IMG/VR virus record: IMGVR_UViG_3300045988_129344
From: a virus
Length of the DNA: 40,863 bases
Reading direction: 5' to 3' (one strand)
Part shown: positions 65-37,422 of the stretch, in pieces
Layout: every line of letters starts with the position of its first letter
How positions within the stretch are numbered: position 1 is the stretch's first letter
Made by a program: the position numbers and the translations under genes
The notes under the pieces: generated by a model
What the model was told of the DNA's origin: nothing
The model's input: the letters and a program-made list of their open reading frames with translations, nothing else
The model's database searches: none

Positions 65-82
65 TGACTAATGCTTGACTAA
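65..82 (+). promoter_or_regulatory. Two TGACTAA arm-type repeats (putative integrase P' arm sites)
   Basis: TGACTAA at 65-71 and 76-82, in the same orientation as the four copies at 40651-40687. Confidence 0.5.
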
Positions 83-1259: not shown

Positions 1260-1487
1260 TTAGTGTATTCCAAGTTCTTTCATTGCTTCATCGGATGAAA
1301 CGAATGTTTTACATTCGGGATTAGTTTCGATTTCGTTTAACATATCAAGGTCGGTTTTATCCGGTTCAATTTCCTCAATATCAGACCAAGAGGAAAAATT
1401 ATCAATAATAATCTTCCATAATGAATTGGCATCTTTTTCACTCATAACGGTTACAGCACCTAAAATACGTTCTTTAATGTTTGACAT
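1260..1487 (-). CDS. Small acidic protein, candidate antitoxin partner of the upstream RelE-like toxin
   Basis: ATG at 1487 is preceded by AAGGAG; the ORF-track start at 1496 is a GTG. It lies 15 nt downstream of the toxin stop in the same operon. I recognised no family. Confidence 0.45.
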   Translation of the reverse strand: MSNIKERILGAVTVMSEKDANSLWKIIIDNFSSWSDIEEIEPDKTDLDMLNEIETNPECKTFVSSDEAMKELGIH

Positions 1488-1502
1488 AATAATCACGCTC
1501 CT

Positions 1503-1745
1503 TTATTTATAAACATCTCCACGATTACCTATTTTTTCGATATATAATATATTACCCTGTCTATCAAATATAACTCTAAAATCACCGACACGAAGTCTAT
1601 ATTTTGAATCTGTACCTTGAAATTTTTTTACATCTCCGTTAGGAAGAGAGTTTATAGCCGTAACAATTCTTTCTTTTGTCGAACGGCTTTGTTTTTGCAA
1701 AAACTTAATTGCTTGCTTAGAATAATTTATCTCCACATTCATCAC
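1503..1745 (-). CDS. RelE/ParE-family type II toxin-like protein
   Basis: 80 aa. KYRLRVGDFRVIFDRQGNILYIEKIGNRGDVYK matches the characteristic YRLRVGDYRIIY...I..I.HR..VY C-terminal pattern of RelE/ParE toxins. AAGGAAG RBS. Confidence 0.75.
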   Translation of the reverse strand: MMNVEINYSKQAIKFLQKQSRSTKERIVTAINSLPNGDVKKFQGTDSKYRLRVGDFRVIFDRQGNILYIEKIGNRGDVYK

Positions 1746-1759
1746 TTCCTTAAATCAAC

Positions 1760-2428
1760 TTACATTTCTCTAATCAGCAATTTTGGAACACCCATTACTC
1801 GGCAATGCTCTAAATCTTCGCCCTCAATCAAAATAGGTGGAACATTTGGATTTATAGGAACTAATCGTAGCCAATCTTCACCTTTAACAAATTCGACTTT
1901 TTTTAATGTTGATATTTCGTCATCATATATCACTGCTCCAACGTCACCACTATAATTAACAGTGCTTTGACGTAAGATTAATACTTTATCGCCGTCTTGA
2001 TATTGTGGATACATACTGTCGCCTTTAACGCAAAGTACAAAGAAATCTTGCGGGCTATATCCTTTTAAATATGAATTAGGAACATCAACTTTATCTCCAT
2101 CCCACGATTCAATGGCAATGTGATTATATCCTGCCGCTATGTCACCTATAACGGGGAATGTTGTATAGTCCTCTGTTATATTCGGACTTGGAAATTTATC
2201 ATCTATATATGTTTCAGTTTCCGATTCATCCCAACCCATTAAGTATTGAGCAGAAACATTTGTTGCTTTAGCAATAGCCTCTATACTATCAATAGGAATT
2301 TTTTTTGTTTCACCTGTTGCATATCGTTGTAATGCAGATTTTGAAATACCGGTTAATTTAGCAAGCTCGCCATAAGAGAGGTCTGCTTGTTTAAGAGCTT
2401 GTAAAATTCTATCTGAACACTCACTCAT
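1760..2428 (-). CDS. CI/LexA-like phage repressor (XRE HTH plus S24 autopeptidase domain)
   Basis: N-terminal HTH LSYGELAKLTGISKSALQRYATGE. C-terminal VKGDSMYP (Ser nucleophile) and TLKKVE (Lys) match the S24 peptidase. The likely start is the ATG at 2428 after GAGGTG; the track start at 2437 is a GTG. Confidence 0.9.
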   Translation of the reverse strand: MSECSDRILQALKQADLSYGELAKLTGISKSALQRYATGETKKIPIDSIEAIAKATNVSAQYLMGWDESETETYIDDKFPSPNITEDYTTFPVIGDIAAGYNHIAIESWDGDKVDVPNSYLKGYSPQDFFVLCVKGDSMYPQYQDGDKVLILRQSTVNYSGDVGAVIYDDEISTLKKVEFVKGEDWLRLVPINPNVPPILIEGEDLEHCRVMGVPKLLIREM

Positions 2429-2459
2429 TATTATCACCTCGACATTATAATAACATATC

Positions 2460-2583: not shown

Positions 2584-2826
2584 ATGGTTGATAAAAATCG
2601 ACTAATGGGTCATATCATAAGTAAAGGTTATTCTCAACGCACACTATCTGAAAAAATAGGAGTATCAAAGAATACCTTAAATAGCAAGATTAATGGGCAT
2701 TCATCATTTGATGTTGACCTTATCGAAAAAATATGTGATACATTGAGTATTACGGACATAAATGAAAAAGCAAAAATTTTTTTGAAACAAGCGTCCCTGA
2801 ATAGGGATGAAAATCAGCGTAAATGA
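2584..2826 (+). CDS. Cro-like XRE-family HTH regulator
   Basis: 80 aa. YSQRTLSEKIGVSKNTLNSKINGHS is an HTH. RBS AAAGGAG. Divergent from the repressor. Confidence 0.85.
   Translation: MVDKNRLMGHIISKGYSQRTLSEKIGVSKNTLNSKINGHSSFDVDLIEKICDTLSITDINEKAKIFLKQASLNRDENQRK
2793..2808. promoter_or_regulatory. Fourth operator-like palindrome inside the 3' end of the cro-like gene
   Basis: GTCCCTgaatAGGGAt has the same half-sites and 4-nt spacer as the 2551-2568 palindrome. Confidence 0.4.
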
Positions 2827-5092: not shown

Positions 5093-5449
5093 ATGGCTAA
5101 CAGTGAAATCAGAAGAAAAGCAAAAGAAAACGGGGTGCATTTATGGCGAATAGCTGACGCGCTCGGAATTACTGACGGTAATTTCTCAAGAAAATTAAGA
5201 AAAGAATTAGCGGAGGCGGAAAAGGAGCAGATATTCAAAATAATTGATGATTTAAAAAAACAGCCCATAAGAAAAAATAATTTAATAACTGGTGGCGGGG
5301 ATAGTTGCGGTGAAGATGTTGTCGCATGCACCTGCGACGAATGCGGTGAACCTATATGTGTAGGCGAAAAATACTACGAAATCGTAGATATAATTATCTG
5401 CGAAAACTGTATAGAAAAATTTGCGAAGATAGGAGAGTTAAACAGATGA
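5093..5449 (+). CDS. Putative DNA-binding protein with a C-terminal Cys-cluster (zinc-ribbon-like)
   Basis: The N-terminal segment HLWRIADALGITDGNFSRKLR is HTH-like. The C-terminal segment is CTCDECGEPIC...CENC. Confidence 0.55.
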   Translation: MANSEIRRKAKENGVHLWRIADALGITDGNFSRKLRKELAEAEKEQIFKIIDDLKKQPIRKNNLITGGGDSCGEDVVACTCDECGEPICVGEKYYEIVDIIICENCIEKFAKIGELNR

Positions 5450-5922
5450 ACATATATGAAATAGACAATGCAATGTTTTCTTTAATTGACGAAGAAACGG
5501 GCGAAATAAAGGACTTTGAAGCATTTGAAGAACTACAAATGCAAAAGGAAGAAAAAATCGAAAATGCGGCACTATGGCACAAGAATTTAATAGCTGAAAG
5601 CAAAGCTATCCGAGAAGAAGAAAAAGCGCTTGCGGAGCGCCGTAAGTCGTTGGAAAACAAAGCTGAAAGTTTGAAGAATTTCGTAAATAGAACATTGAAC
5701 GGTAACAAGTTCAGTACATCAAAAGTTGCTATAAGTTACAGAAAATCAACGGCGGTAGAAGTTGATGATGAATTTATTGATTATGCAATGAAGAACAACA
5801 ACGACCTGTTGACATATAAGCAACCTGAGCCAAACAAAACGGTCATCAAGGGAATGTTGCAGGGTGGTTTTGATATTCCACACGCAGAGTTGGTAGAGAG
5901 AAACAATATGAGTATAAAATAA
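5446..5922 (+). CDS. Siphovirus Gp157-family protein
   Basis: MNIYEIDNAMFSLIDEETGEI...coiled coil...SISYRKS pattern. It sits upstream of a Sak4-like ATPase and a DUF669 gene, which is the known conserved triad. ATG at 5446 overlaps the previous stop. Confidence 0.7.
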   Translation: MNIYEIDNAMFSLIDEETGEIKDFEAFEELQMQKEEKIENAALWHKNLIAESKAIREEEKALAERRKSLENKAESLKNFVNRTLNGNKFSTSKVAISYRKSTAVEVDDEFIDYAMKNNNDLLTYKQPEPNKTVIKGMLQGGFDIPHAELVERNNMSIK

Positions 5923-5934
5923 GGAGTGATATAT

Positions 5935-6564
5935 ATGGGAATACCTGTTTTAATTATGGGTGAAAGCGGTAGCGGAAAAAGCGCAAGTATGAGAAATTTT
6001 GAAGCAGATGATTTGTTAATATTCAATGTGGCAAGTAAGCCGTTGCCGTTCCGTAAGAAGTTAAATTCAATAAAAAAGGCTACATACAACGTTATTGCCA
6101 AAGAATTAAGTAAAAAGCAGTACAAGCGATACGTTATAGACGACAGTCAATATTTGTTGGCGTTCGATTCGTTTAATCGTGCAAAAGAAACAGGCTATGC
6201 GAAGTTTACCGATATGGCGGTACGTTTTCAAAAGATGATTACATTTATTATTGAGGGATTGCCTGATGATACAATCGTATATTTTTTGCACCATTGCGAG
6301 CAGACCGAAAACGGTAAAATTAAAGCGAAAACAATCGGCAAAATGTTGGACAATCAGTTGACAGTTGAGGGACTGTTTTCAATCGTTTTACTATGTCAAG
6401 CTGACGGTCAAAGTCATAGTTTCATAACGCAATCAGACGGACATACAACGTGTAAGTCGCCTATGGATATGTTTGATTTAGAGATTGATAACGATTTGAA
6501 AGCAGTTGACGAAAGAATAAGAGAATATTACGGACTGAATGAGGAGGATAAGAATAATGAATAA
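5935..6564 (+). CDS. Sak4-like AAA (AAA_24-type) recombination ATPase
   Basis: Walker A LIMGESGSGKS. Walker-B-like RYVIDDSQ. Synteny with Gp157 and DUF669. Confidence 0.7.
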   Translation: MGIPVLIMGESGSGKSASMRNFEADDLLIFNVASKPLPFRKKLNSIKKATYNVIAKELSKKQYKRYVIDDSQYLLAFDSFNRAKETGYAKFTDMAVRFQKMITFIIEGLPDDTIVYFLHHCEQTENGKIKAKTIGKMLDNQLTVEGLFSIVLLCQADGQSHSFITQSDGHTTCKSPMDMFDLEIDNDLKAVDERIREYYGLNEEDKNNE

Positions 6565-7120
6565 GATACAAGGATATGACGAGGCGCAAGCATACACAGG
6601 TGAGAGCAGAGCATTGCCGGCAGGTAAATATATCTGCGAAATCAAGGGTGCAAAAGAGGTTAAAGCCAAAACCGGTAAGAAACAATTGGTATTGCAACTT
6701 GATATTGCAGAGGGTGAATACAAGGATTTTTATAGCGACCAATTTTCAAAAACTATTAAAGAAAAGGGGACGGAGGCAAAGTGGAACAACGGAGGACTTT
6801 TCAGACAAGGATACGAGGGTAAACAATTACCGTTTTTCAAAGGTATGATTACTTGTATTGAAGAAAGTAATGAGGGCTATGAATGGAATTGGGACGAAAA
6901 AACGCTTAAGGGTAAGAAAATAGGTGTATTGTTTGGACGTGAACAATACCTGATGAACGGTCAAAAAAAATGGGCGACTAAGGCAAGAGCGGTAAGAAGT
7001 ATCAAAGGATTGGAAATGTCCGAAATTCCACAGGATAAACTACTTGATGGAAGTACATCGGGATTTGATACAAGCGGATTTGATGATGAGGACGTATCGG
7101 AAGAAGATTTGCCGTTTTAA
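6557..7120 (+). CDS. DUF669-type ssDNA-binding protein with an SSB-like acidic C-terminal tip
   Basis: ALPAGKYICEIKGAKEVKAKTGKKQLVLQLDIAEGEYKDFY is typical of DUF669. The protein ends DDEDVSEEDLPF. Confidence 0.7.
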   Translation: MNKIQGYDEAQAYTGESRALPAGKYICEIKGAKEVKAKTGKKQLVLQLDIAEGEYKDFYSDQFSKTIKEKGTEAKWNNGGLFRQGYEGKQLPFFKGMITCIEESNEGYEWNWDEKTLKGKKIGVLFGREQYLMNGQKKWATKARAVRSIKGLEMSEIPQDKLLDGSTSGFDTSGFDDEDVSEEDLPF

Positions 7121-7133
7121 TATAGGTTAAGGA

Positions 7134-8993
7134 ATGGGTGCTATGGAGAATGAAAACAGAATAACGATACCCGATTTCAGTAAGGACGATTTTTTAATAT
7201 CATCAAAACCGTTTCAATGGATAATAGACCAAGCTGACGGCAACGAGTTCATCAAAGGTCAGCTTGTGGCACAAATGGCGGAAAAGGCAAAGAAATTAAA
7301 AGTATCTAATTTCCGAACACAATTTTCAAACTACGTCAGAGCGCAAAAGGGTCAAAGCATTGTTTACGGCAACGTAATGGAGTTCAGTGGCACTGCAATA
7401 ATGTGGGACACAGGCGAATGGATAGCAACTGATGACGGAGTGTATAGGTTTAAAGGACAGTTCAGCGAAAAAGTGACGGCGTGTCCACACCCGATATTTA
7501 TGATAACAAGATATTCAAATGTAGATACTGATGTTGAAAGTGTGCAACTTGTTTACGGTAGACCGGGACGAAATTACAAAACTAAAATCGTCCCACGTTC
7601 TGACCTTGCAAGTGCGAATAAAATCGTAAAATTAGCTGAATACGGTGTCGGCGTAACATCAGAAAATGCAAAGGCACTCGTACAGTTTTTAAGCGATTTT
7701 GAAAGCATAAATTATGACAAAATAATCGAAAAGAAATCGTGTGACCATATGGGTTGGGTAGGCAGAGGATTTAAAGAATTTGCACCGTATATATCAGATT
7801 TGGAGTTTGAGGGACAGGACAGTTTCAGACAGTTATTTAATTCGGTAAGAGAGGTCGGCAGTTATGAAAAATGGCTTAAAACAATCAGAGATTACCGCAA
7901 AAACGGTAATATAGTTGTTCGCATGGTAATGGCGGCGAGTTTTGCGAGTGTACTGTTAAAACCGCTCGGAGCGTTGCCGTTCTTCGTTCACCTATGGGGC
8001 GATACAGAAACGGGTAAATCGGTTGCGCTACTTGCGGCAGTGTCTGTATGGGCTGAGCCGGTTATTGGTAAATATGCCTATACATTCAATTCTACTGATG
8101 TAGGTAATGAATTATATGCGGCGTGTTTAAATTCACTGCCGTTATGTATGGACGAATTGCAGATACTGAATAAACGTTCGGATTTTGATGATATAATATA
8201 TCGTCTGTGCGAGGGTACAGGACGTTTACGCGGTAAAAAAGACGGTGGTATACAAAATATTAAGACGTGGCGAAATTGTATTATAACCACAGGCGAACGC
8301 CCGATAACATCAATGTCATCGGGTGGCGGTGCAGTCAACCGTGTTATTGAAATCGAATGTAACGGCGGTAAGTTTTTCAAAAATCCGAGAGAATTTTGCA
8401 GAACGATACAAGCGAATTACGGTCATGCCGGTAAAGAATTTATTGATAATTTAACCGGAAATATCGCTGAAGCACGAGCATTGCACGAAAAGTATATTAA
8501 ACTGTTGGAAGATAATACAGAGGCAACGGACAAACAAATTGCGTCAGCGGCGGCATTATTAACGGCTGATGAGCTGTCTGAACGTTGGATATTTAATGAC
8601 GGTGTACGAATCAGTATAGATGATATTAAACCGTATCTACAAACAAAGGATATGTTGAACGTCAACAGACGTGCGTATGATTACTTGCGAGAAGAAATTA
8701 TTGCAAATCATAGCAATTTCACATCAAACGGCAATGAGTGTTGGGGGATAGAGCAGGACGGCAATATATACATATTGAAAAATCGGTTTAATTCGATAAT
8801 TACTGACGGTGGATTTAATCCGCAGTCAACACTTTCATGGATGATTCGTAACCATAAAATTGCACGTCACGAAAATGGCAGACGCGATATATCCAAGCGA
8901 ATTAACGGAGCAAAAGCACATTGTATCTGTATCTATGTAGACGATATAGACGACTATGAGGACATTGAAAATGATGAAGATTTACCATTTTAA
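7134..8993 (+). CDS. DUF927-like SF3 replicative helicase (possible primase-helicase)
   Basis: Walker A WGDTETGKS. VSVWAEP...FNSTDVGNE...LCMDELQ...CEGTGRLRG fits the DUF927 pattern. The protein ends ENDEDLPF. Confidence 0.7.
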   Translation: MGAMENENRITIPDFSKDDFLISSKPFQWIIDQADGNEFIKGQLVAQMAEKAKKLKVSNFRTQFSNYVRAQKGQSIVYGNVMEFSGTAIMWDTGEWIATDDGVYRFKGQFSEKVTACPHPIFMITRYSNVDTDVESVQLVYGRPGRNYKTKIVPRSDLASANKIVKLAEYGVGVTSENAKALVQFLSDFESINYDKIIEKKSCDHMGWVGRGFKEFAPYISDLEFEGQDSFRQLFNSVREVGSYEKWLKTIRDYRKNGNIVVRMVMAASFASVLLKPLGALPFFVHLWGDTETGKSVALLAAVSVWAEPVIGKYAYTFNSTDVGNELYAACLNSLPLCMDELQILNKRSDFDDIIYRLCEGTGRLRGKKDGGIQNIKTWRNCIITTGERPITSMSSGGGAVNRVIEIECNGGKFFKNPREFCRTIQANYGHAGKEFIDNLTGNIAEARALHEKYIKLLEDNTEATDKQIASAAALLTADELSERWIFNDGVRISIDDIKPYLQTKDMLNVNRRAYDYLREEIIANHSNFTSNGNECWGIEQDGNIYILKNRFNSIITDGGFNPQSTLSWMIRNHKIARHENGRRDISKRINGAKAHCICIYVDDIDDYEDIENDEDLPF

Positions 8994-13027: not shown

Positions 13028-13266
13028 TTATAATGCGAAAAGAATGAGCAAACAAAAAATAATGCAAAACATATATACAGTGCAATATTTTGTGTTCTAT
13101 ATCTTACCGCTCGTTATTTTCGTAAAAAAGGTAGTGTATCGTCGTGAGATGATGGGTGAATATCTCAAAATTGATTGGTGGGAATGGAGATATTAGATTA
13201 AACAGATTGTATGTGTTAATCATATGCAGTCTGTTTTTATTTTTGGATAAAGAAAGGGACATAATT

Positions 13267-14809
13267 ATGGAGCTATTGCAATTAGTTGAAAAATTCAAGA
13301 ACGTTTTCAGCATAGAAAAAATTGAAGATGTTGTTGATGAATTAAAATCAACATTGTTAAATGCCGAAAATTGTCGAAAGCTATGTGAAGATTGGATTTT
13401 AATATGTCCTGATTTAACAATAGATTATATGCAAATGATATTTCAATATTATTTTGCCGACCGCAAAGAAAAAATGCAGGACTACACACCGAAAAGCCTT
13501 GCGGTAGCGGTTGCAGAGTTATCAAAAACCGAAAATGAAAAGATTTGTTTGGATTTGTGTGCGGGTAGCGGAGCATTGACAATCCAAAAATGGAACGAAA
13601 ATAACGATTTAAAATTCATATGCAAAGAATATGACAATCGTGTTATTCCGTTTTTGTTGTTTAATTTGGCAATTAGAAATATTGACGCCGAAGTTATTCA
13701 TTGTGATGTATTGTCAGATGAAAATTTCAAAACATACAGGACGCAAAAGGGTGATAGATTTGCAACTGTTAAAGAGATAACTAAGAGCGAATTTAAAGCT
13801 GATTGTTGTATATCGAATCCGCCGTACAATATGAAATGGGAACAACCTGTATTTGCACAATTACAGAATAGATTTTCACAGTGCGAAGGTACCGCCGGAA
13901 AGTAATGCGAATTATGCGTTTGTATTGACTGCGTTAGATGAGATTACGGGCAAAGCAAGTTTTATATTGCCGAATGGTGTTTTAAGTACAGACAACCAAA
14001 AGGAAAAGCAAATAAGACAGTATTTAGTTGAAATGAATTTCATAGAAAGTATAATTGTATGTCCTGATAAAATGTTTGAAGTTACGTCAATACCAACGTG
14101 TATTATAACATTTAACAAAAATAAAAAACATTCAACGATAGAAATGATTGACCTGCGACAGAGGTATGAAACGGAACAACGAATGCAAAACGGACAGTTT
14201 GGCGGCAAAAGTCACACTAACAGGACATACGCAAAAGAGGTCAAGATTATATCCGAAAGTCAGATACAAGATGTATTAATACAAATTGAACAGTACGGAA
14301 ATATAGCGGGTTACTGCAAGGCAGTAAGCATTGAAGAAATAAAAAACAATAATTATGTATTGGTGCCAAGCCGATACATAGAGTTTGAGAATATAGAAAA
14401 TGCACATAGACCGTACAACGAAATAGTTGCGGATATTAACAGAATTATAACTGAAAAAAATACTTGTAAACTAACAATAAACGAAACAATCGCCAAGTCT
14501 TTAGGATTTGACATTGAACTGTTCAAGCAGGACAACGGTACAAATAATGATTTCTCAAAATTGACAGAAAAAATATGCGGTGAAAAGATTGTAAAAAATG
14601 ATTATTTCAAAACAACCAAAAATAAAAATGAAATAACATTTTCAAACAACAGCAAAGAAAATATATCAAGTATTCTTATGATGATATTTAACACGTGGAA
14701 ACAACACATATATTATCTAAATCTTGAAGAAAACAGATATTTAGCGGAACTTCGGGACGCACTGTTGCCGGAACTGATGAGTGGAAAAATAGATATAAGT
14801 GATATATAA
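13267..14809 (+). pseudogene. N6-adenine DNA methyltransferase (HsdM-like with an HsdS-like C-terminal helix), split by a frameshift near 13885-13900
   Basis: Motif I LDLCAGSGALT and motif IV ISNPPYNMKW are in frame A, which ends at 13905. The expected continuation PPESNANYAFVLTAL...LPNGVL...IR.YL is in the +1 frame (ORF 13853-14809). The C-terminus LAELRDALLPELMSGKIDIS resembles the conserved HsdS helix. Confidence 0.75.
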
Positions 14810-29439: not shown

Positions 29440-30270
29440 ATGCGAAACGGATTTTATTTTAAAAACAAACATTCAAACGATTTCGGAGTGACTGTACAAA
29501 CGCAGTCACGTCCGATTAAACCGGAAATGAAAATACAGACATATGACAGCCCGTATATAGACGGTGAATATGATTTTTCAACGGCAAATGCGTACAACCG
29601 TGAATTTTATAAAAACCGTGTATTTAAAATGAATTTGCAAATATCGGCGGCGGATATGTCTGAACTGAACAGCAAAATCACAAAAATCACAACGTGGTTA
29701 ATGGGACGTGGTGAGTTGATATTTGACGACACACCCAATGTCAAATGGAATGCGTCGGTTATTGAAACAATAGATTACAAACCAGAAAACTACGGACACA
29801 AAGCGGTCATTTCGGTGTCGTTCAAAGTGCAGACGTGGGCGGCGTTGGTATTTGATATTTTTGACGGTCCGATATTGGATAGCCAAAACATCAAATTAGA
29901 TGATGAAATACCAATCGGACCGAATGAATATTACACGATTACAACAGCAGGCGACAGTACAATACATAACACAGGCGACCGCCCTGTCAGACCTGTTTTG
30001 CGTGTTACAAACGTCACAAAACCTACAACGATAACCTGTAACGGTATCAGTATTACGGTGTCGGAAAACTGCGTTATTGACTGCGACAAACAGTCGGTAA
30101 CAGACGTAAACGGCAACAGTATTATGAAAAAAATCAAAGGTAATTTTTTTGAACTGGAAACAGGGGCGAATAGAATAATTTTGTCCACGACGGCAACGGT
30201 TGAATTTTCATTCTATCCGCAGTACGTTTGGAATACAGAAACGGAGGATATATACAAATGGGACAGATAA
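29440..30270 (+). CDS. Distal tail protein (Dit)
   Basis: The N-terminus FYFKNKHSNDFGVTVQTQSRPIKPEMK is typical of Sipho_tail. It lies after the tape measure gene. Confidence 0.85.
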   Translation: MRNGFYFKNKHSNDFGVTVQTQSRPIKPEMKIQTYDSPYIDGEYDFSTANAYNREFYKNRVFKMNLQISAADMSELNSKITKITTWLMGRGELIFDDTPNVKWNASVIETIDYKPENYGHKAVISVSFKVQTWAALVFDIFDGPILDSQNIKLDDEIPIGPNEYYTITTAGDSTIHNTGDRPVRPVLRVTNVTKPTTITCNGISITVSENCVIDCDKQSVTDVNGNSIMKKIKGNFFELETGANRIILSTTATVEFSFYPQYVWNTETEDIYKWDR

Positions 30271-32009
30271 CATTTATGCGATTGCACGACAGATATACAG
30301 ACAGTTTTGAAACAGGCGAGGTGCTGAACAACGCATATAATATCAAGGAAACAAGGATATTGAACGATACGGGAAGTATTGAATTTGACTATCCATACGA
30401 CGAAAAGGCGCGTCTAATCAGTCAAAATATGTTGGTTAGTGTAAACGGTCATATATACGAAATCAGCCGAACAACACGAAATATGAACGGTGCGGATTCA
30501 CTGCACGTTTACGGTACACCACATTTTGTGTATGAGGCGCAGAAAGCGTTTATACCGACAATCGGCGACCATATCGGTGAAACATCAAGAGCAGTGCTGC
30601 AAGCGGCGGTAAAGATTATTTCGGATTTCAAGGAAGAAGTCAAAGAAAAGTGTATTTTTCACATTATGACAAATGCCGAGTTGACCGAAAAAGGAATGAA
30701 GTGGGTTGCAGATGATGAACTGCTGATTGATTTTTTCTCTACAGACAAAACAAATTTGTGGGACGTTATAAAAACGATAATAGAAAATTTGGGACGTGGC
30801 GAAATATTCCACGAAACAACTATCGACATTAATAACAACATTGTATGTAACATTGCCATTGTTGAACGTATCGGCACAGATAACGGCGTCAGACTGCGTT
30901 TAGAAAAGAATATGCGAAGCATATCAATAGAACGCAACGTAAGCGATATGATAACGCGTTTATGGGCGTTCGGAAGTGACGATTTAACAGTCAGCAGTGT
31001 AAACGGCGGCAAAGCATATATAGACAGTCCAAACATTGAAAAATACGGTGTGCAAGAGGGGTACAAGGACTATAGCGATTATACATCAGCGGACAAACTG
31101 TACCGTAATGCAAAGTGGGAGTTTGACGAGGACAACGAAGATAGAATTGACGTACCGCAGTTGACAATCAGCGGTAAACTGATTGACCTATCGAAGTTAT
31201 CCGAATACGGCGACACAGAAAAGTTGGAAATAGGCGATACGGTACACGTATTTGACATAGACGGTACGGAATATGTGCAGAGGGTAATTGAATATCAGGC
31301 ATATCCGTTGGAGCCGAAAGAGAGCAATATATCAATCGGGCATATCAGACGTGATTTTTTTATCGGACTATGGCAGACAGAACAGGCAACAAAGAAACAT
31401 GCAAAGTGGCAGACTGCGAACAACAGTGTAAATATCCGAAAAGTACAAGGAACGGTGAACACAGACCGAAACGAGGTGCAGTCGGACAATAAGCTGTTGA
31501 AAATTGTCGGCGATTTGTTATACATTGAGGACGACAAGGGCAGACGAAGAATAAACCTCGGAAATATGGACGGTGCGTTCGTTTTTCAGATATTCAATCA
31601 GTTGTCGGAGAAAACCATTGAAATGGACGATGACGGTAATGTTACTATAACAGGTGTATTTGCCACAGGCACAGACAAAAAGGCAAGAACCGTTATAGAC
31701 AAAAACGGTATTCAAAGTTACGACGCTGACGGCAATAAGTACGGATTGTGGTGTAATGCACCGAGTAGCAACGATATGAGATATACTGATTTTAATTTAT
31801 ACTACAATAATAAATGTATTTTTCAAATATACAACGCTATATCGGGAATTTTATTAAGAACGTATGGATTGGACATACTTAGTTCGGGTAACGGTACGAC
31901 AGTCGGCAAAAATAAATGGAAGTTTGAACAGGGAGCAAGCGGAACATTTCAAACCGCAGACGGAAAAACGGTAACTGTTTCGGGCGGTCTTATAACAGGT
32001 ATTTCATAA
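30258..32009 (+). CDS. Tail-associated lysin-like / Tal (phage minor structural protein, N-terminal region)
   Basis: ATG at 30258 after GGAGGA. ILNDTGSIEFDYPYDE...VSVNGHIYEI pattern. It lies after Dit. Confidence 0.8.
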   Translation: MGQITFMRLHDRYTDSFETGEVLNNAYNIKETRILNDTGSIEFDYPYDEKARLISQNMLVSVNGHIYEISRTTRNMNGADSLHVYGTPHFVYEAQKAFIPTIGDHIGETSRAVLQAAVKIISDFKEEVKEKCIFHIMTNAELTEKGMKWVADDELLIDFFSTDKTNLWDVIKTIIENLGRGEIFHETTIDINNNIVCNIAIVERIGTDNGVRLRLEKNMRSISIERNVSDMITRLWAFGSDDLTVSSVNGGKAYIDSPNIEKYGVQEGYKDYSDYTSADKLYRNAKWEFDEDNEDRIDVPQLTISGKLIDLSKLSEYGDTEKLEIGDTVHVFDIDGTEYVQRVIEYQAYPLEPKESNISIGHIRRDFFIGLWQTEQATKKHAKWQTANNSVNIRKVQGTVNTDRNEVQSDNKLLKIVGDLLYIEDDKGRRRINLGNMDGAFVFQIFNQLSEKTIEMDDDGNVTITGVFATGTDKKARTVIDKNGIQSYDADGNKYGLWCNAPSSNDMRYTDFNLYYNNKCIFQIYNAISGILLRTYGLDILSSGNGTTVGKNKWKFEQGASGTFQTADGKTVTVSGGLITGIS

Positions 32010-32015
32010 AAGATA

Positions 32016-32044
32016 TTTACAAAATTATTCCTTTGTGGTACAAT
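32016..32044 (+). promoter_or_regulatory. Promoter of the secreted-protein moron
   Basis: TTTACA (32016-32021), 17-nt spacer with TGg, TACAAT (32039-32044). The inverted repeat CCTTTGTG (32030-32037) / CACAAAGG (32053-32060) brackets the -10. Confidence 0.6.
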
Positions 32045-32070
32045 TTAGGTATCACAAAGGAGGTATTTTT

Positions 32071-32625
32071 ATGAAAGGGAATATTAAAAGTTTTATATGC
32101 GGTATGCTCGTTATGGGTATTATATCGTGTGCAGGAGTATACGCAACCGACGTGTGGCAGAATATAAATGTTTTACCGAATACAATAAAAGTTGTGGTAG
32201 ACGGTAAAGCGGTACAAGCCGACAATTTCCTATACAACGATACAACATACTTGCCGATAAGGGCGGTAAGTGAAGCGTTGGGAAAAGACGTACAATATGA
32301 TACACAAACAAGCACCGCCACAATATCAGAAAAGAAAGAAGATGATAATATGGCAGTTACAAGTAAATACACGCCACCGACAGAATATATAAACGACTCT
32401 GCTTTCATTACTCAAAAAGACGGGGTATATTATGCTTTGATTAATTTTGTGGCGACCAAAATTCAAGACGCAGGATATAAATTTGAATACGACTACGATA
32501 CAAAAACATTTAAAGCCGTAAGCGGCGATAATGTGATTTATATAGGCAAAACAACAGTTATGGACTCTGACGAAGTTATCCCATACGACCAATTTGTAGA
32601 CGAGATACAGCCGTTGTTGAAATAA
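32071..32625 (+). CDS. Secreted/membrane-anchored protein with a copper-amine-oxidase-N-terminal-like domain
   Basis: Signal/TM segment FICGMLVMGIISCAGVYA. IKVVVDGKAVQADNFLYNDTTYLPIRAVSEALGKDVQYD matches the Cu_amine_oxidN1 pattern. RBS AAAGGAGG. Confidence 0.7.
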   Translation: MKGNIKSFICGMLVMGIISCAGVYATDVWQNINVLPNTIKVVVDGKAVQADNFLYNDTTYLPIRAVSEALGKDVQYDTQTSTATISEKKEDDNMAVTSKYTPPTEYINDSAFITQKDGVYYALINFVATKIQDAGYKFEYDYDTKTFKAVSGDNVIYIGKTTVMDSDEVIPYDQFVDEIQPLLK

Positions 32626-32640
32626 GAAAGGGGATTTACA

Positions 32641-32997
32641 ATGATATGGCAACAAGAAGTGTTGGATAAAATAGTATCGAAAATTAAGCCCTTTTCGGAT
32701 TCAGCTAAAAAGTACAAAGCAAATGAAGAAGAAAAGCTTTTTATAGAAAATCTTGCAAGAGAAATGCTTAATAAAAATGCTTTACAACATTTGAAAATTG
32801 ACAGACGTTCAAACGGATTGTTAAATTTTAAATATAAGAATATGCAGATTGGACGAATAAATTTAAGGTCTAAGCCGACACAACTACAAATCATATCACA
32901 GTATGATGTACGTTGGTTAGAAGGACTTTATGTAAGGGAATGTATAAGAAAAATTCCCGAGTGGATGGAATACTTAGATTATTTGATGAATAAATAG
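32641..32997 (+). CDS. Hypothetical protein (118 aa)
   Basis: ORF with AAGGGGA RBS. AT-rich. No motif recognised. Confidence 0.55.
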   Translation: MIWQQEVLDKIVSKIKPFSDSAKKYKANEEEKLFIENLAREMLNKNALQHLKIDRRSNGLLNFKYKNMQIGRINLRSKPTQLQIISQYDVRWLEGLYVRECIRKIPEWMEYLDYLMNK

Positions 32998-33032
32998 CAC
33001 AAAGACACCTCATTATGGGGTGTCTTTTGTGT
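32997..33032. terminator. Bidirectional terminator between convergent genes
   Basis: cacaaagacacc / ggtgtcttttgtg long stem (33001-33009 pairs with 33019-33027), followed by T-rich sequence. Confidence 0.75.
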
Positions 33033-33035
33033 TGG

Positions 33036-33608
33036 CTAATTAGATAGCTTGTGAGTAACCTCACTGACTTTCCAATTGATTGTAAGTTCATAATGCTTTG
33101 TTAAATTGAATTTACCTACAATTGAATCGTTAAGTATTTTATTAGATACATCAATAAAAAATGGTCTGGAAAGTTGGTTGAGTACCTTTAATGCATCTAA
33201 TGTTTCCTCATCTTTTGCTTGATGAATAGTTAACTCATATAAAGTAACTTTATCCTTGGATAGTAAGAGTCCTTTTGGTCTTAAAGAAGCCGCAAACGTA
33301 CAATAATATTCTTCTGATACACCTTTTTTTAAATGAAAAGTTAAAAAACCATATTCTTCTGCCTTTATGGTTTCCTCATAGGTAGAAAAATCTATTCCAT
33401 ATAGTTCTATAGGAGTATAATCAATTAGTTGCGTAGGAGTTACATTCAAATATCTACATAGTTTATCCAATGTATCGAACTGAATGCCTTTGCAATTATT
33501 TTGGGATAAAGCTGTAAGTGTAGTTCGTGAAATACCGGTATCATGAGCTACTTTTGTTATTTTAATGTTGTTTTCAGCAAGAATAATTGATAGATTACAT
33601 CTAATCAT
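33036..33608 (-). CDS. XRE/HTH_26 (YozG-like) regulator with a C-terminal domain of about 125 aa of unknown function (Mnt-analogue candidate)
   Basis: MIRCNLSIILAENNIKITKVAHDTGISRTTLTALSQNNCKGIQFDTLDKLCRYLNVTPTQLIDY. ATG at 33608 after GGAGG. Confidence 0.75.
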   Translation of the reverse strand: MIRCNLSIILAENNIKITKVAHDTGISRTTLTALSQNNCKGIQFDTLDKLCRYLNVTPTQLIDYTPIELYGIDFSTYEETIKAEEYGFLTFHLKKGVSEEYYCTFAASLRPKGLLLSKDKVTLYELTIHQAKDEETLDALKVLNQLSRPFFIDVSNKILNDSIVGKFNLTKHYELTINWKVSEVTHKLSN

Positions 33609-33630
33609 AATAAAACCTCCTTTCATAATA

Positions 33631-33659
33631 ATTGTACAATACACTGTTCATTTTGTCAA
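33631..33659 (-). promoter_or_regulatory. Leftward promoter of the long HTH gene
   Basis: The minus strand reads TTGACA (33659-33654), 17-nt spacer, TACAAT (33636-33631). A TGTTCA box at 33645-33650 lies in the spacer. Confidence 0.6.
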
Positions 33660-33697
33660 GTTTTTAGAAAAAAATAATAAAAATATTAAAAAAAGTA

Positions 33698-33759
33698 TTG
33701 ACATTTAATTAATAGGAATGTATAATAGAAATAGATTTTGAACAAAAGTCTGAACAAAA
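33698..33759 (+). promoter_or_regulatory. Consensus rightward promoter plus two TGAACAAAA boxes
   Basis: TTGACA (33698-33703), 17-nt spacer, TATAAT (33721-33726). TGAACAAAA at 33739-33747 and 33751-33759. Confidence 0.7.
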
Positions 33760-33780
33760 ATCAAAAAAAAACGAAAGGAT

Positions 33781-33993
33781 GTGGTAAAATTGGACAACAA
33801 CTTATCGCAAATCTTAGGCGAAAAACTTATTAAGATTTCGCAAGTTTCAAAAGATACTGGAATTTCAAGGTCTACGTTGACAAACCTGTATTATAAACGT
33901 AGTAAAGCTATTTCGGGTAATGTATTACACAAATTGTGTGATTATCTTGATTGCAGTGTTGGAGATTTGTTGGAAAAGAAAACAAAAAAATAA
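33781..33993 (+). CDS. Small XRE/HTH_26 regulator (Arc-analogue candidate)
   Basis: ISQVSKDTGISRSTLTNLYYKRSKAISGNVLHKLCDYLDCSVGDLL is paralogous to the N-terminal domain of the divergent gene. The start is uncertain (GTG 33781 or TTG 33790). Confidence 0.75.
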   Translation: MVKLDNNLSQILGEKLIKISQVSKDTGISRSTLTNLYYKRSKAISGNVLHKLCDYLDCSVGDLLEKKTKK

Positions 33994-34111
33994 CGATAAC
34001 ACGCCAACCAAAGCAATCGTTATCGTTATCAGTACAAGACGTTTCCGTCTATAAGATATTATATCATAGATTGAAACTCTTGTCAAAGCAAAATTTGAGA
34101 GGAGAAGTTTA

Positions 34112-34894
34112 ATGAATAATTTACAGATTGTAAAATCAGCACAATTCGGAGAGGTACAATGTGATGTGTACTCAGATAGTCAAGATATGTTTATGACAAT
34201 AAGTCAGTTATCTGATTGCTTAGGATATGCCGACAGAAAGAGTATCGAAAAGATAATCGAACGTAATCCTTACTTAAAAGATAAAGAGTTTTCAGTTACC
34301 GACAAATTGTCGGCTACTGATGGTAAGAAGTATAATACTCGTATTTTCACAGAAGACGGCATATATGAAGTTACCTTTCTCGCAAAAACTGAAAAAGCAA
34401 AAGAGTTCAGAGCGTGGGTAAGAAAACTACTGAAATCTTTAAGAAAAGGCGAAACGGTTAATATTGCAGCAGACCACTTAAAAGAAATTGAATTACAAGC
34501 AAAACGTGACAGAGCCACCGCAATGTTGCTTAATGCTCAAAATCGTATGATAAAAACGCTTTTATCGAACACTAAGGACAAAAACTTATCACAGATTGCG
34601 ATTGATGTTATGGGCATTAAAGCGGTGGAGCAGATAACGGGTAAGAATATGAACCAGTATTTACCCGAATGTGAAAAACTTTATTCAGCAACCGAAGTCG
34701 GTGGAATGTTCGGTGTATCGGCTATGAAAATTGGCAAGACTGCCAATGCAAGCGGACTTAAAAATGATACATACGGTAAAACTGTTATGAGCAAGTCAAA
34801 ACATAGTTCTAAAGAGGTACAACAGTTTTTATACAACGAAAAAGGCGTACAAGCTTTAGGCAAGATTTTAGGCAAGACCGTTAAAACGGCGTAG
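34112..34894 (+). CDS. Bro-N domain antirepressor
   Basis: TISQLSDCLGY...YNTRIFTEDGIYEVTFLAKTEKAKEFRAWVRKLL fits the Bro-N pattern. There is also a C-terminal ANT/KilAC-like region. Confidence 0.75.
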   Translation: MNNLQIVKSAQFGEVQCDVYSDSQDMFMTISQLSDCLGYADRKSIEKIIERNPYLKDKEFSVTDKLSATDGKKYNTRIFTEDGIYEVTFLAKTEKAKEFRAWVRKLLKSLRKGETVNIAADHLKEIELQAKRDRATAMLLNAQNRMIKTLLSNTKDKNLSQIAIDVMGIKAVEQITGKNMNQYLPECEKLYSATEVGGMFGVSAMKIGKTANASGLKNDTYGKTVMSKSKHSSKEVQQFLYNEKGVQALGKILGKTVKTA

Positions 34895-34906
34895 GAGGAA
34901 TTTGTG

Positions 34907-35179
34907 ATGAAAAGTGAATTGATAAATCAAATTTATGCAGACGTTTCACAGAGCGAGGAATATCAAAAATCAGAAGAAATGAAACAGTTAACTAAAATAC
35001 AAGATGAGCAGGGGAAAGCCATAAGAAAGACCGTAGGGGATAGAATGTATATAAACAATATTGATGGATTTGTTTCAGCGTCGGAGGCTGGTTGTGAACG
35101 TTACGGTTTTATTTTGGGTTTTAAATATGCAATGCGACTTATACAAGAATGTTTCAATCCAACAGGACAGAATATATGA
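34907..35179 (+). CDS. Hypothetical protein (90 aa)
   Basis: ATG at 34907, 8 nt after AGGAGG. Confidence 0.55.
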   Translation: MKSELINQIYADVSQSEEYQKSEEMKQLTKIQDEQGKAIRKTVGDRMYINNIDGFVSASEAGCERYGFILGFKYAMRLIQECFNPTGQNI

Positions 35180-35188
35180 ATCGGAATT

Positions 35189-35212
35189 AAGCACCTTTTG
35201 GGGTGCTTTTTT
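35189..35212 (+). terminator. Rho-independent terminator
   Basis: aagcacc / ggtgctt stem followed by a T-run. Confidence 0.75.
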
Positions 35213-35259
35213 CGTACAAAAAATGAGGTGACACAATGTACAGACGAATACCACCATAG

Positions 35260-35281
35260 CACGCGAACGGCGTGTTTTTTT
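35260..35281 (+). terminator. Second terminator-like hairpin
   Basis: cacgc-gaacg-gcgtg stem followed by TTTTTTT. Confidence 0.55.
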
Positions 35282-35325: not shown

Positions 35326-37422
35326 ATGAAATTAAATTTTAATTTTAGCGGTAAAACGCTGTTAAAGGATTGGTGGAAGATTGTTCGTGATAATTTCACG
35401 GCAATTCAAACCGAGCATAACACACTGTCCAACAAATTGGATACAGAAATAACGCAACGCACTAACGCTGATGTAGGTTTGGCGGACAAAATCACTGCCG
35501 AAACCAAGGTGAGGGAAAGTGCGGATAGTTCGTTAAACAGTCGTATAAACAACGAAGTGACAATACGACAGGCGGCGGATAATGAACTGCAACGTAATAT
35601 TGACAGTGAAATCACCGAAAGGCAGACGGCAGATACCAATATTTCAAATTCAGTGAAAGCCGAAGAATCAGCAAGAAAAAGTGCTGACAAAGAATTGAAA
35701 GCACGTATTGATGAAATCAATGCGAACACCGAAACAACTATACTGTTTGGCGACAAAAAGCAACATACAGTAAAATTTGTTGCACCGAGTAAGCCTACAC
35801 TATATTTTGACGGACAACAAGAATATTATGGCGAGAGTATGGCGGTTGATATTACACTGAAAGACGCGTTTTACATTGACGGGAAACAGATTGCCGGAAC
35901 GTTTTCAGAACCGTGTATAAATGTACCAATAGACGGCATTTATATTGTTGTTCGCTATGATTTTATTAAAAATACGTGTAGTATATCATCAAATTCTACA
36001 TCTGTACCGTCGGCAATTTCGGGTGATGTATGGACATTTACATTGTATCATATTCACGATATAAATTTAGAAATGAAGATAGACAGCGAATCGCCGACAG
36101 GGGAAAGATATGAGTTTGTATCGGCGACGGTTGATTATGTCATAGAAAACGAAAATACCACAGGCGACAGTTATTTCATCACCAATACATACGAACGTGT
36201 TCGTACATTGGCAGATTTGGCAACTGTCAATAAAAATTCATTTATTGACGCTGTAAATGAAAATGCAAAAAATATTACAGATATAACAAAAAATCAAATA
36301 TTTGTGCAATGCGACGGCGACCACGACGAATTAAAATTACAGGCGGCGATAGATAGCGCGCCGTATAAAAGTATTATATATCCTGTAGGTGAATTGTGCG
36401 TTATTACAAATGCAAATATGAAGTCGGGTTACGGAATGACGGGAACTAATAACGGTGTGGCAATTCCGTTAAAGGGCGGTATGACGTTAGACGGTTCAAT
36501 GTGCGATACAATTATGTTCAAAAATACAAATTCTGTCGCAAAACAATATGTTTTTCATCTGCCGGAAGGCGCTAAAATGCAAAATGTAAAATTTACAGAG
36601 GACACGGACACTGTAACGGCGGACACGGTTAATCCGACAGTATTATTAGCGCAAAGTAGTTCACAGATAATATCCTGTACATTCTACGATATATTTAGTA
36701 CACATCAATTCGGTGTATCAACGTTTGAAATGAGCAACGTTCTGTTTTTGAACAACGTCATAGATACGTTCGCAGGTGCACCGGCAAATAATTTGACATA
36801 CGAAATAAAAATCGCAGGCAATTCGTTTGTTATGGGTAACAAATTTTTGAATTTCACGCAAAAAGAACAATCGTTAGGATATATGCTACAGGCGTCAACC
36901 GTTATATTTGTAAACAATTATATGTCCGGTTTTACAAATTGCAGTATTGATATAGGCAAAAAAATAGTAGGCAATATATTTAAAACGTTTACTGATTGCA
37001 GTATCGATATAAATGGCGAAATTTCGGACAATGAATTTGCAGCAATTACACAGAACACAAAAACACCGTTTATATACACCAAGGGGATTACATTAATCAG
37101 CGGAAACAGAATGCCTGTTATAAAAATTAATTCCGAATATATCGATTTTATCGAATGCGGAAATTATGCCGTTATATGCGGAAATTATATGCACATTTCC
37201 GCAGGCCCTACGTCGGGACAGTGTAATCTAATATCAGCCAGCAGTCAGACGCTGATAGCAGATAATATATTTAGGACAACGGCGTCTGTAACGGCAAATG
37301 CTGATTTTTCAATTATATACAGCGACGGTAAAACAGTAGTCAAAAATAACGTGACAAATGCCGTATCAATCGGAACGTTCGGCGATACGTGCGTTGTTGA
37401 CGGAAATGTGACAGGGTGGTGA
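35326..37422 (+). CDS. Tail fibre / receptor-binding protein (N-terminal repeat coiled coil, C-terminal beta-helix-like repeats)
   Basis: Five E..R..AD..L repeats between residues about 40 and 125. The C-terminal region carries periodic GN/DN motifs (ISGNRMPV, ICGNYMHI, IADNIFRT, VKNNVTN, VDGNVTGW). Confidence 0.7.
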   Translation: MKLNFNFSGKTLLKDWWKIVRDNFTAIQTEHNTLSNKLDTEITQRTNADVGLADKITAETKVRESADSSLNSRINNEVTIRQAADNELQRNIDSEITERQTADTNISNSVKAEESARKSADKELKARIDEINANTETTILFGDKKQHTVKFVAPSKPTLYFDGQQEYYGESMAVDITLKDAFYIDGKQIAGTFSEPCINVPIDGIYIVVRYDFIKNTCSISSNSTSVPSAISGDVWTFTLYHIHDINLEMKIDSESPTGERYEFVSATVDYVIENENTTGDSYFITNTYERVRTLADLATVNKNSFIDAVNENAKNITDITKNQIFVQCDGDHDELKLQAAIDSAPYKSIIYPVGELCVITNANMKSGYGMTGTNNGVAIPLKGGMTLDGSMCDTIMFKNTNSVAKQYVFHLPEGAKMQNVKFTEDTDTVTADTVNPTVLLAQSSSQIISCTFYDIFSTHQFGVSTFEMSNVLFLNNVIDTFAGAPANNLTYEIKIAGNSFVMGNKFLNFTQKEQSLGYMLQASTVIFVNNYMSGFTNCSIDIGKKIVGNIFKTFTDCSIDINGEISDNEFAAITQNTKTPFIYTKGITLISGNRMPVIKINSEYIDFIECGNYAVICGNYMHISAGPTSGQCNLISASSQTLIADNIFRTTASVTANADFSIIYSDGKTVVKNNVTNAVSIGTFGDTCVVDGNVTGW

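Follow-up and report, generated by a model that had tools for sequence, protein, structure and literature searches.

A candidate second repressor switch for an antirepressor-like gene upstream of the tail fibre gene of a gut siphovirus prophage

The DNA analysed here (IMG/VR record IMGVR_UViG_3300045988_129344; 40,863 nucleotides, referred to as the window) is the complete prophage of an uncultured temperate siphovirus from the gut, and our subject is a cassette of about 2.3 kb (32989-35259) in its late region. The cassette lies directly upstream of the tail fibre gene and after the genes for Tal, a Cu_amine_oxidN1 protein (CuAO) and orf118, and consists, in this order, of a left hairpin, a long repressor gene on the minus strand, divergent promoters, a small helix-turn-helix (HTH) gene, an antisense RNA, a Bro-N gene, orf91 and a right terminator (Table 1). 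With moderate confidence, we interpret it from sequence comparison as a horizontally exchanged moron that would form a second self-contained repressor switch for an antirepressor-like effector, inserted between the Tal-side genes and the fibre gene. What the comparisons provide for this interpretation are the parts themselves, operators that covary with the recognition helix of the regulators, the homology of the long repressor to Stl2, the mobility and polymorphism of the cassette and the conserved design of the antisense RNA. A sequence-only reading, made from the letters of the DNA without database searches, had already recognised before the tail fibre gene, within the late operon, a second regulatory region that stands on its own, and this description holds, the region having divergent promoters, operators and terminators of its own.

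That reading had listed a long HTH_26 regulator on the minus strand, a small paralogous HTH_26 protein (33781-33993), a Bro-N protein and a downstream ORF of 90 aa, and all four genes are present, the last one being 91 aa long; like the other elements listed there, they lie where that reading had put them or a few bases away. The small protein and the N-terminus of the long one have 49% identity (E=6e-15), so that the two proteins are paralogues. The start of the small protein is more likely TTG 33790, which would give a protein of 67 aa, than GTG 33781, since the Shine-Dalgarno (SD) sequence AAAGGA (33774-33779) lies 10 nt before the TTG and 1 nt before the GTG, and the relatives point to the same start. 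The recognition helices of the two regulators are near-identical (GISRTTLTAL and GISRSTLTNL), and both regulators share one predicted operator type, like CI and Cro or Stl and Str and unlike Mnt and Arc.

Both divergent promoters named in the earlier reading were recovered, at 33698-33726 and 33659-33631, and the boxes that it had seen downstream of the rightward -10 are real and make up O_R. The motif TGWWCA-N6-TGWWCA has two exact matches in the 40,863 bases, both of them in this intergenic region, as against an expected 0.08, and none of 100 shuffled sequences reached two. Of O_L, only the TGTTCA box in the leftward spacer had been noticed; the second box, TGTACA at 33633-33638, which overlaps the -10, had been missed. 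Elsewhere in the window there is no exact match to the cassette operator, and with one mismatch a single chance-level site was found, so that control of other phage genes by the cassette regulators was rejected. The order of elements in the intergenic region is kept across the loci of the family, namely SD, ATTGTACAAT, operator with TTGTCAA, then TTGACA, -10 and operator, and the arrangement of ATTGTACAAT and TTGTCAA also occurs in the intergenic regions of distant family members. A site equivalent to O_L is found at the same relative position in most relatives, and at the place of O_R the family consensus is TGTTCA-N6-TGAACA, which is inverted.

The operator covaries with the recognition helix. 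In 52 unique intergenic regions, taken from 56 loci with the divergent pair, a site with at least 11 of 12 matches is present in 41 of the 43 regions that go with a GISRTTLT-type helix and in none of the nine that go with a GIS/AKTTLM/Y-type helix. The spacing between O_L and O_R is 106 bp here compared with 68-98 bp in the relatives, and a shared helical phase was not found among them; we therefore make no claim of operator looping.

The long repressor belongs to a large family in which a nearly invariant HTH_26 N-terminal domain is joined to a divergent C-terminal domain of about 120 aa, and its relatives come mostly from Clostridia and other Firmicutes. The family profile, when compared with PDB, matched SaPI2 Stl (8q86/8rc5/8qe9) with E=6.6e-26 over profile positions 1-161. 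A model of the protein made with AlphaFold2 (AF2; pLDDT 86) had SaPI2 Stl as all of its top eight Foldseek matches (E=3e-11 to 3e-9, TM 0.5-0.6), and the matches after these covered the HTH part only. Profile and model together indicate homology of the long repressor to SaPI2 Stl (Stl2), the satellite master repressor. The likeness takes in both domains, the N-terminal HTH and the C-terminal beta-sheet wing, and extends to the surroundings: a str-like small HTH gene is divergent from the repressor gene, two 18-bp sites that are predicted operators lie between them, the repressor is without an S24 domain, and a recombinase gene of the Sak4 type (5926-6564), a ligand class of Stl2, is present in the same phage. 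Repressors of the Stl2 type also form rings or filaments of dimers and are derepressed by the recombinases that bind them; the Sak4-like gene is a circumstantial pointer to such a ligand here. Two 18-nt repeats between stl and str are bound by Stl2, and the phage-encoded recombinases Sak and Sak4 bind Stl2 in turn; through its inhibition of these recombinases Stl2 confers antiviral immunity (PMC11846896). On the other hand, and unlike SaPI2, the cassette belongs to the tail operon of a prophage that is complete, has Bro-N and orf91 under its control and is without adjacent integrase, replication or capsid-hijacking genes, the only integrase of the window being that at 79-1104. The recognition helix is also different, GISRTTLT here and KIARSSLT in Stl2, and thus the operators probably differ. 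Since the repressor lacks an S24 domain and the cassette lacks a LexA box, derepression would come about through a protein that binds the C-terminal wing; by analogy with Stl2 it is probably brought about by a protein ligand and not by DNA damage.

We collected 138 loci related to the long protein. An integrase is present in 72 of them, the long HTH gene being typically directly beside it, and 56 loci have, divergent from the gene of the long protein, an HTH_26 gene of 65-80 aa, often with a Bro-N gene next. Since the divergent pair is integrase-adjacent in these relatives, it would normally be the primary lysis-lysogeny switch, and the loci indicate that it serves as such in Firmicutes prophages and in satellite-like elements of 10-17 kb, including the Streptococcus 'Javan' satellites. 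The gene order of the cassette (repressor, divergent small HTH, Bro-N protein) is likewise that of the primary cI-cro-ant early switches of Gram-positive temperate phages, of which phi11, with Gp07 as a Bro-N/KilA-C protein after cro, is an example. Unlike such switches, the cassette is a second copy that stands without an integrase in the late region of a phage already holding an S24 CI and a Cro with unrelated operators, and unlike most loci of the primary type it has an antisense RNA.

The cassette is not a fixed part of these phages. As a population sample we used 45 related viral contigs that hold both Tal and the fibre gene. A cassette occupies the slot between the two in 12 of them, in at least six architectures of which the Stl2-like type is only one, and 33 are without it. 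Other cassette types in the same slot carry ordinary HTH_3 repressors instead of Stl2-like ones, and in sister cassettes ORF6N proteins are found there. In six loci with a repressor 99% identical to that of the window (L001, L002, L004-L006 and L060), homology to the window stops exactly at the left hairpin (32989-33001) and different genes follow; Tal of L001 and L060 is only 40% identical to that of the window. Four others (L140-L143) share with the window only the left hairpin and the part from 33974 rightward, that is from the terminator end of the antisense RNA, and between these shared flanks the divergent pair is another one, with HTH_3 proteins of 135-136 aa on one side and of 69-75 aa on the other. 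The left hairpin also borders other regulators in L140, L142 and L150; L150 holds a fourth version of the cassette in the same slot, and its structural proteins are 36-43% identical to those of the window. On the right, the alignment of L141, L142 and L144-L148 to the window ends at 35259, which is approximately the limit of cassette homology. In L206 the fibre, orf127 and amidase proteins are 100% and the holin 98% identical to those of the window, and the cassette is a different one. An additional Bro-N protein of 179 aa is found in L140 and in the type-C locus L190.

The GC content is 0.27-0.34 within the cassette compared with 0.39-0.44 upstream. We call the cassette a moron on the strength of its own promoters and terminators, its presence or absence among relatives (12 against 33) and its atypical GC. 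Terminators at both ends had been proposed; the right one was found, and the left hairpin is stable on both strands with a U tract that is weak on either. This hairpin terminates the long HTH gene and insulates against the late genes upstream, and the alignments mark it as the recombination junction of the cassette as well. Integrase and satellite genes were found neither inside 32989-35259 nor beside it, and since no integrase or packaging gene is inside, a helper-embedded satellite was rejected. A cassette of the same family is also found at 4500-7200 of L142 (HTH_3-type regulators, hairpin, antisense RNA, Bro-N gene and an orf91 homologue with 63% identity), where it stands in a myovirus-like tail module between a tape measure/LysM protein and a CHAP-domain hub, with baseplate-J-like genes next.

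An antisense RNA gene, absent from the parts list of the earlier reading, lies on the minus strand between the small HTH and the Bro-N genes. Its promoter, P_as, is 12 bp upstream of the Bro-N SD and is directed toward the small HTH gene. In the predicted RNA a 5' hairpin, its loop GAAA, is followed by one of 13+4 bp, its loop UUGGU, and by a U-run; a hairpin with the U-run is at 34029-33978. The RNA is complementary to the stop region of the small HTH gene and to the Bro-N leader, not to the Bro-N SD (34097-34104), about 45 nt before which it ends. In the sense leader the SD is able to pair with CUCUUG at 34078-34083, and an attenuator terminator is not evident in this leader. Since the SD is not covered by the RNA and can pair with CUCUUG, we can only infer how the RNA acts; duplex-dependent processing, convergent transcriptional interference, or both, would be the candidate modes. 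In the window no trans targets of the RNA loop were found.

The arrangement is conserved. All 12 related cassettes have a TG-extended antisense promoter before their Bro-N or ORF6N gene, and so do L150, L105 and L165, and also L128. Its distance from the effector start codon is 31-40 nt in L150, L105 and the 12 cassettes and about 220 nt in L165, and in each of these an RNA of the same design, two hairpins and a U-run, follows it. In seven sequence-distinct versions of the RNA both hairpins and the U-run are kept, with two to four canonical pair types per outer-stem position, and a UUGGU or UUGAU loop recurs in most versions from the late slot. This conservation was obtained by a scan for promoter plus fold and by stem-by-stem comparison; a covariance model (R1) finds close versions only, and MAFFT/RNAalifold was unable to align the divergent ones. 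Among Bro-N genes in general the feature occurs in 5 of 32 unique upstream regions, compared with 2.4% of control ORFs, and three of the five are versions of the late-slot cassette.

The RNA resembles pT181 ctRNA, P22 sar and P1 c4 in that it is short (about 70-90 nt), folds into two stem-loops and ends in an intrinsic terminator, is convergent from the effector leader and has a U-rich loop with a UUGG (YUNR-like) motif that is kept among versions. Binding of sar to ant mRNA has been reported (PMC11016777). The Rfam family ctRNA_pT181 (RF00242) aligned end to end with our RNA at 34 bits, which is below its gathering threshold of 56 (E=0.003-0.03), and the match to the near-identical copy in L140 was not recovered in a larger search. 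Membership was rejected on this score and we claim resemblance only; the RNA is not in a plasmid rep leader and does not overlap the SD.

The two effector candidates follow. The Bro-N protein matches anti-repressor families of PHROGs, and its relatives (42-54% identity) follow CI and cro genes beside integrases. The earlier reading had the unit control an antirepressor, and this holds insofar as the gene is annotated as one: the protein has the N-terminal Bro-N domain of that class, which is its sole Pfam domain, and lacks the P22 Ant domain and a C-terminal ANT or KilAC domain, ANT, KilAC and P22_AR not being found even at E<=10. The AF2 model (pLDDT 82, pTM 0.43) consists of the Bro-N domain, long helices and a small C-terminal HTH-like unit. 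An informative sequence or fold match in PDB was not found, and the matches of the model in BFVD are Bro-N proteins with annotation-level names. Since family annotation is the sole basis for it, the word antirepressor is to be read at the level of annotation. In L144-L149 (P0189-P0200) the C-terminal part of about 190 aa of the Bro-N protein (76% identical) is joined to a Phage_pRha N-terminal domain, a case of domain shuffling. The second protein, orf91, is an orphan: its family has nine clusters among 5.8 billion sequences and no precomputed Pfam domain, and its sole family signal is a sub-threshold match to DUF6809 (E=0.043). Its homologues follow Bro-N or ORF6N/RHH147 genes in related cassettes, so that it is co-inherited with the antirepressor-like gene.

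The host phage of the cassette has a primary switch of its own. The S24 repressor, which the earlier reading had ended at 2428, is present and ends at 2437. Between it and the Cro-like gene are three sites of the TGTCCCTAAA(N)AGGGACA type, at 2460, 2502 and 2551, which are probable operators of the S24 CI and Cro; at 2440-2580 two of the three TGTCCCTAAA copies lie within TGTCCCT-N5-AGGGACA-like palindromes around a TTGACA/-10 pair. With no mismatch allowed, TGTCCCTAAA does not occur in the cassette, and outside the primary switch only two sites with one mismatch were found. Direct control of the cassette by the primary CI was rejected because TGTCCCTAAA is confined to these places. Since the primary operators are not in the cassette and the cassette operators are not in the primary switch, the two circuits are separate as far as DNA binding is concerned. 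If they are coupled, it must therefore be through proteins, with Bro-N and orf91 as the output and the ligand of the Stl2-like C-terminal domain as the input.

LexA-controlled antirepressor modules are found in the Gifsy phages, in coliphage 186 (Tum) and in SPC32H (Ant). As in these, the antirepressor-like gene of the cassette is away from the primary immunity region and would be held off by a dedicated repressor. No LexA box (GAAC-N4-GTTC) was found in or near the cassette, and a LexA-controlled antirepressor of the Gifsy or 186 type was therefore rejected; unlike these modules, the cassette has no LexA/Cheo box and brings its own repressor, and the primary CI of its phage already has an S24 autocleavage domain.

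No close cultured phage was found for the window: comparison of its DNA with cultured phages gave short patches only, and compared with INPHARED phages Tal is at most about 26% identical over longer matches and 33% identical over one match of a quarter of its length. Between the integrase and the S24 repressor are a ParE-like toxin ORF (1503-1745, minus strand; Pfam ParE_toxin E=6e-5) and an ORF of 78 aa (1260-1496, minus strand), which are possibly a toxin-antitoxin pair within the lysogeny module. The Sak4-like annealing protein stands in a cluster with Gam-like (Sipho_Gp157) and DUF669/SSB-like proteins at 5356-7120. An N6 DNA methylase at 13156-14809 (plus strand) is divided over two overlapping ORFs in different frames, 13156-13905 covering profile positions 16-152 and 13853-14809 covering positions 150-309; the split could be a frameshift, a sequencing error or a programmed shift.

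Table 1. Positions of the features of the cassette and of the rest of the window
Feature	Position	Strand	Remarks
Left boundary hairpin	32996-33033	both	-25.7 kcal/mol (z=-5.6) on +, -19.3 (z=-4.3) on -
Long repressor, 190 aa	33036-33608	-	Pfam HTH_26 E=4.6e-19; N-terminal HTH_26 and C-terminal beta-sheet 'wing' domain
Operator O_L, TGTACAATACACTGTTCA (predicted)	33633-33650		overlaps P_L -10 and spacer; exact TGWWCA-N6-TGWWCA
Promoter P_L (leftward, long repressor)	-35 TTGACA 33659-33654, -10 TACAAT 33636-33631	-	11/12 consensus
Promoter P_R (rightward, small HTH/Bro-N/orf91)	33698-33726	+	TTGACA-17-TATAAT, 12/12 consensus
Operator O_R, TGAACAAAAGTCTGAACA (predicted)	33739-33756		about +6 to +23 of P_R; exact TGWWCA-N6-TGWWCA
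Small HTH_26 protein	33781-33993	+	Pfam HTH_26 E=2.3e-20; Str/Cro-like position; 70 aa from GTG 33781
Antisense RNA, ~75 nt (predicted, cis)	34052-33978	-	fold z=-4.6
Antisense promoter P_as	34086-34058	-	TTGACA-17-TGnTATAAT, 12/12 + TG
Bro-N protein, 260 aa	34112-34894	+	Pfam Bro-N E=5.4e-10; phrog_1726 'anti-repressor' E=1.6e-28, other anti-repressor PHROGs
orf91, 91 aa	34904-35179	+	downstream of Bro-N in P_R operon
Right terminator	35189-35208	+	end of P_R operon; 8-bp stem and T-run, canonical
Tyrosine integrase	79-1104	-	sole integrase of the window
S24/HTH CI repressor	1760-2437	-	S24 autocleavage domain
Cro-like HTH	2584-2826	+	partner of S24 CI
Sak4-like recombinase	5926-6564		phrog_2872 E=1e-68
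Replication-recombination block (Gam-like/Sak4-like/SSB/DUF927)			followed by terminase, 1691-aa tape measure, Dit, Tal
Tal	30228-32009
Secreted Cu_amine_oxidN1 protein and orf118	between Tal and cassette
Fibre-like protein	35326-37422		followed by holin, amidase

The flanks of the cassette also vary. The gene after Tal (32035-32997 in the window; L206-L280) is in the relatives either a Cu_amine_oxidN1 protein or an unrelated signal-peptide protein of about 219 aa, in either orientation. Besides the window, orf118 is present in 7 of the 12 contigs with a cassette and in none of those without. In the part of the slot that corresponds to orf118, L190 has at 5346-5583 (plus strand) a full-length match, below threshold (29.7 bits, E=0.0018), to the Rfam family BsrG, the type I toxin mRNA of the SPbeta prophage of B. 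subtilis. On the other side, between the cassette terminator and a terminator at 35258-35276, the segment 35213-35276 holds a mini-ORF of seven codons, MYRRIPP* (SD gaggtga 35225-35231, ATG 35237), the stop codon of which overlaps the 5' arm of the second terminator. L190 has a counterpart at 8750-8812, with a sub-threshold match to the Rfam family Phe_leader at the position of the mini-ORF. The arrangement is kept in L150 (7590-7655) as MKYGIPP* with the same CACGC/GCGTG stem, though the fibre protein is 43% identical there, and in L142 (7108-7140) MMCRRIPP* is kept and the terminator is not present. The common ending I-P-P-stop suggests a ribosome-stalling leader that may admit transcription into the fibre gene.

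The known system that the cassette most invites comparison with is the immI region of P22, and the earlier reading had likened its layout to mnt/arc/ant. The parallel goes further than that reading had it: position and polymorphism match, and a sar-like antisense RNA is predicted, whereas the regulators share one operator type and are not analogues of Mnt and Arc. In both phages the accessory unit is transcribed independently within the late operon, immediately before the receptor-binding gene; its maintenance repressor diverges from an operon that opens with the gene of a second, small repressor and goes on to a gene annotated as antirepressor, and the gap between these two genes gives rise to a small antisense RNA, predicted in the case of the cassette. 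The flux is high as well: P22-like phages have 10 ant-moron types in 16 genomes (PMC2629481), and the slot studied here has at least six types in 12 contigs and 33 empty slots. Given the independent late-slot unit, the flux and the same order of parts, the layout matches that of the P22 ant moron. There is no homology of the regulators, which are HTH_26 proteins here and ribbon-helix-helix proteins in Mnt and Arc, and the paralogues of the cassette have one operator type, TGWWCA-N6-TGWWCA, where Mnt and Arc have distinct operators. Also unlike in P22, the Bro-N protein is without P22 Ant domains, the antisense RNA does not reach the effector SD, and the cassette belongs to a siphovirus of a probably Gram-positive host (with a myovirus-like tail in L142).

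The following course of events is what we infer for the binding of the operators, for the ligand that brings induction about, for what the RNA does and for how the Bro-N protein acts. In a lysogen, the long repressor would be made from P_L and would bind the two 18-bp operators as a dimer or oligomer; at O_R, just after the start of P_R, it would block small HTH, Bro-N and orf91, and at O_L, over the -10 and spacer of P_L, it would exert negative autoregulation. Derepression would follow when a protein binds the wing domain of the repressor, as recombinases do with SaPI2 Stl, and a candidate ligand is the Sak4-like recombinase encoded by the phage itself (5926-6564), another the recombinase of a phage that enters the cell. 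Once P_R is on, the small HTH protein would bind the same operators, shut P_L in the manner of Cro or Str and limit P_R, and the antisense RNA from the strong convergent P_as, directed against the Bro-N leader, would keep the effector low or delay it relative to the small HTH protein. The output, Bro-N and orf91, may act on repressors, either the phage's own S24 CI or those of co-resident elements, as family annotation and gene position suggest. It is tempting to take this one step further to a protein-sensing alarm, in which titration of the Stl2-like repressor by the own Sak4 after induction or by the recombinase of an invader, with the Cro-like paralogue and the antisense RNA as filters, would release the antirepressor-like proteins, which would either drive the resident prophage or its neighbours into induction or abort the infection, but we hold this extension only tentatively and think it rather unlikely.

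Several observations weigh against the interpretation as a switch for an antirepressor. O_R is in the window a direct repeat of TGAACA boxes, at variance with the inverted consensus of the family. The antisense RNA does not cover the SD or the start codon of Bro-N, unlike sar of P22, the pairing partner of which is the ribosome-binding site of ant. In their C-terminal domains the repressor and Stl2 are only about 20-24% identical, and at this identity the ligand class cannot be transferred from one to the other. No repressor-binding domain was detected in the Bro-N protein, the modelled architecture of which would be compatible, too, with a regulator that binds DNA or with a toxic effector, and its Bro-N domain matches the PADLOC candidate defence families PDC-S05 and PDC-S23 (E=4e-9).

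These last points lead to the explanation that the cassette serves anti-phage defence, the Stl2-like protein sensing and inhibiting an incoming recombinase and its titration freeing Bro-N and orf91 as toxic or abortive-infection effectors. The PADLOC matches, the immunity conferred by Stl2 through inhibition of Sak and Sak4 (PMC11846896) and the extension of the fold homology over the wing domain speak for it, as does the accessory and polymorphic nature of the cassette, which is like that of defence morons; moreover phi11 Gp07, which has Bro-N and KilA-C domains, is growth-inhibitory when overexpressed (PMC5944126). However, other cassettes in the slot carry HTH_3 repressors and not Stl2-like ones, which argues that the shared element is the antirepressor-like genes and not the Stl2 sensor, the phage's own Sak4-like recombinase would be harmed by a cognate inhibitor, and Bro-N relatives are normally in early lytic operons after cro. 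We thus regard defence as an unlikely main role. Heterotypic superinfection immunity is a still less likely one: here the long repressor would act in trans on elements with TGWWCA-N6-TGWWCA in their primary switch, and the Bro-N operon would be secondary. The HTH domain and the operator are indeed kept across many prophages and satellites with an integrase-adjacent pair, so that a resident copy could repress their lytic promoters. But these operator relatives span many host taxa, so that conservation need not imply cross-talk, and such a role leaves unexplained why antirepressor-like genes, antisense RNA and orf91 are always retained with the repressor and why the repressor is swapped freely while the Bro-N/ORF6N side is kept.

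It could also be argued that the reverse gene and three hairpin terminators in the tail operon (32996-33033, 35189-35208 and 35258-35276) mainly tune transcription into the fibre and lysis genes, as was suggested of the ant moron and the tailspike in P22 (PMC2629481), and the conserved mini-ORF and terminator just before the fibre gene would suit such a gate. We think this quite improbable as well, the same fibre and lysis genes being kept by the 33 of 45 related phages that are without the cassette, and the mini-ORF/terminator element being conserved in L150 with the fibre gene and not with the cassette. The explanation to which we give the least credence is that the cassette is inert recombination debris, a functionless fragment of the immunity region of another phage or satellite. 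It is true that the pair is normally integrase-adjacent, that the GC of the cassette is lower than that of its flanks and that satellites embedded in prophage late genes are known (PMC10111431). On the other hand, all ORFs are intact, the promoters match the consensus at 11-12 of 12 positions, the boundaries are precise and conserved, no integrase or packaging gene lies within 32989-35259, and the module is 99-100% conserved in several backbones in which Tal is only 40% identical; it is therefore very hard to see it as debris.

If the cassette is the exchanged second switch that we favour, its meaning is as follows. What is known of second immunity regions that include an antirepressor comes mainly from enterobacterial phages of the P22-like and P1-like groups, and the same design principle would have arisen independently in uncultured gut Firmicutes phages, where it stands beside the receptor-binding gene and is exchanged like an immunity cassette. 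A repressor of the Stl2 family, hitherto a helper sensor and recombinase inhibitor of satellites, inside a complete prophage would offer a testable route for phage-phage sensing. Were the protein-sensing alarm true, a complete phage would have co-opted the satellite style of helper sensing, and the cassette would be a Firmicutes counterpart of immI with the activity of another phage, not DNA damage, as its input. The operator TGWWCA-N6-TGWWCA and the two-hairpin antisense RNA can be used for the annotation of such cassettes and for experiments on them.

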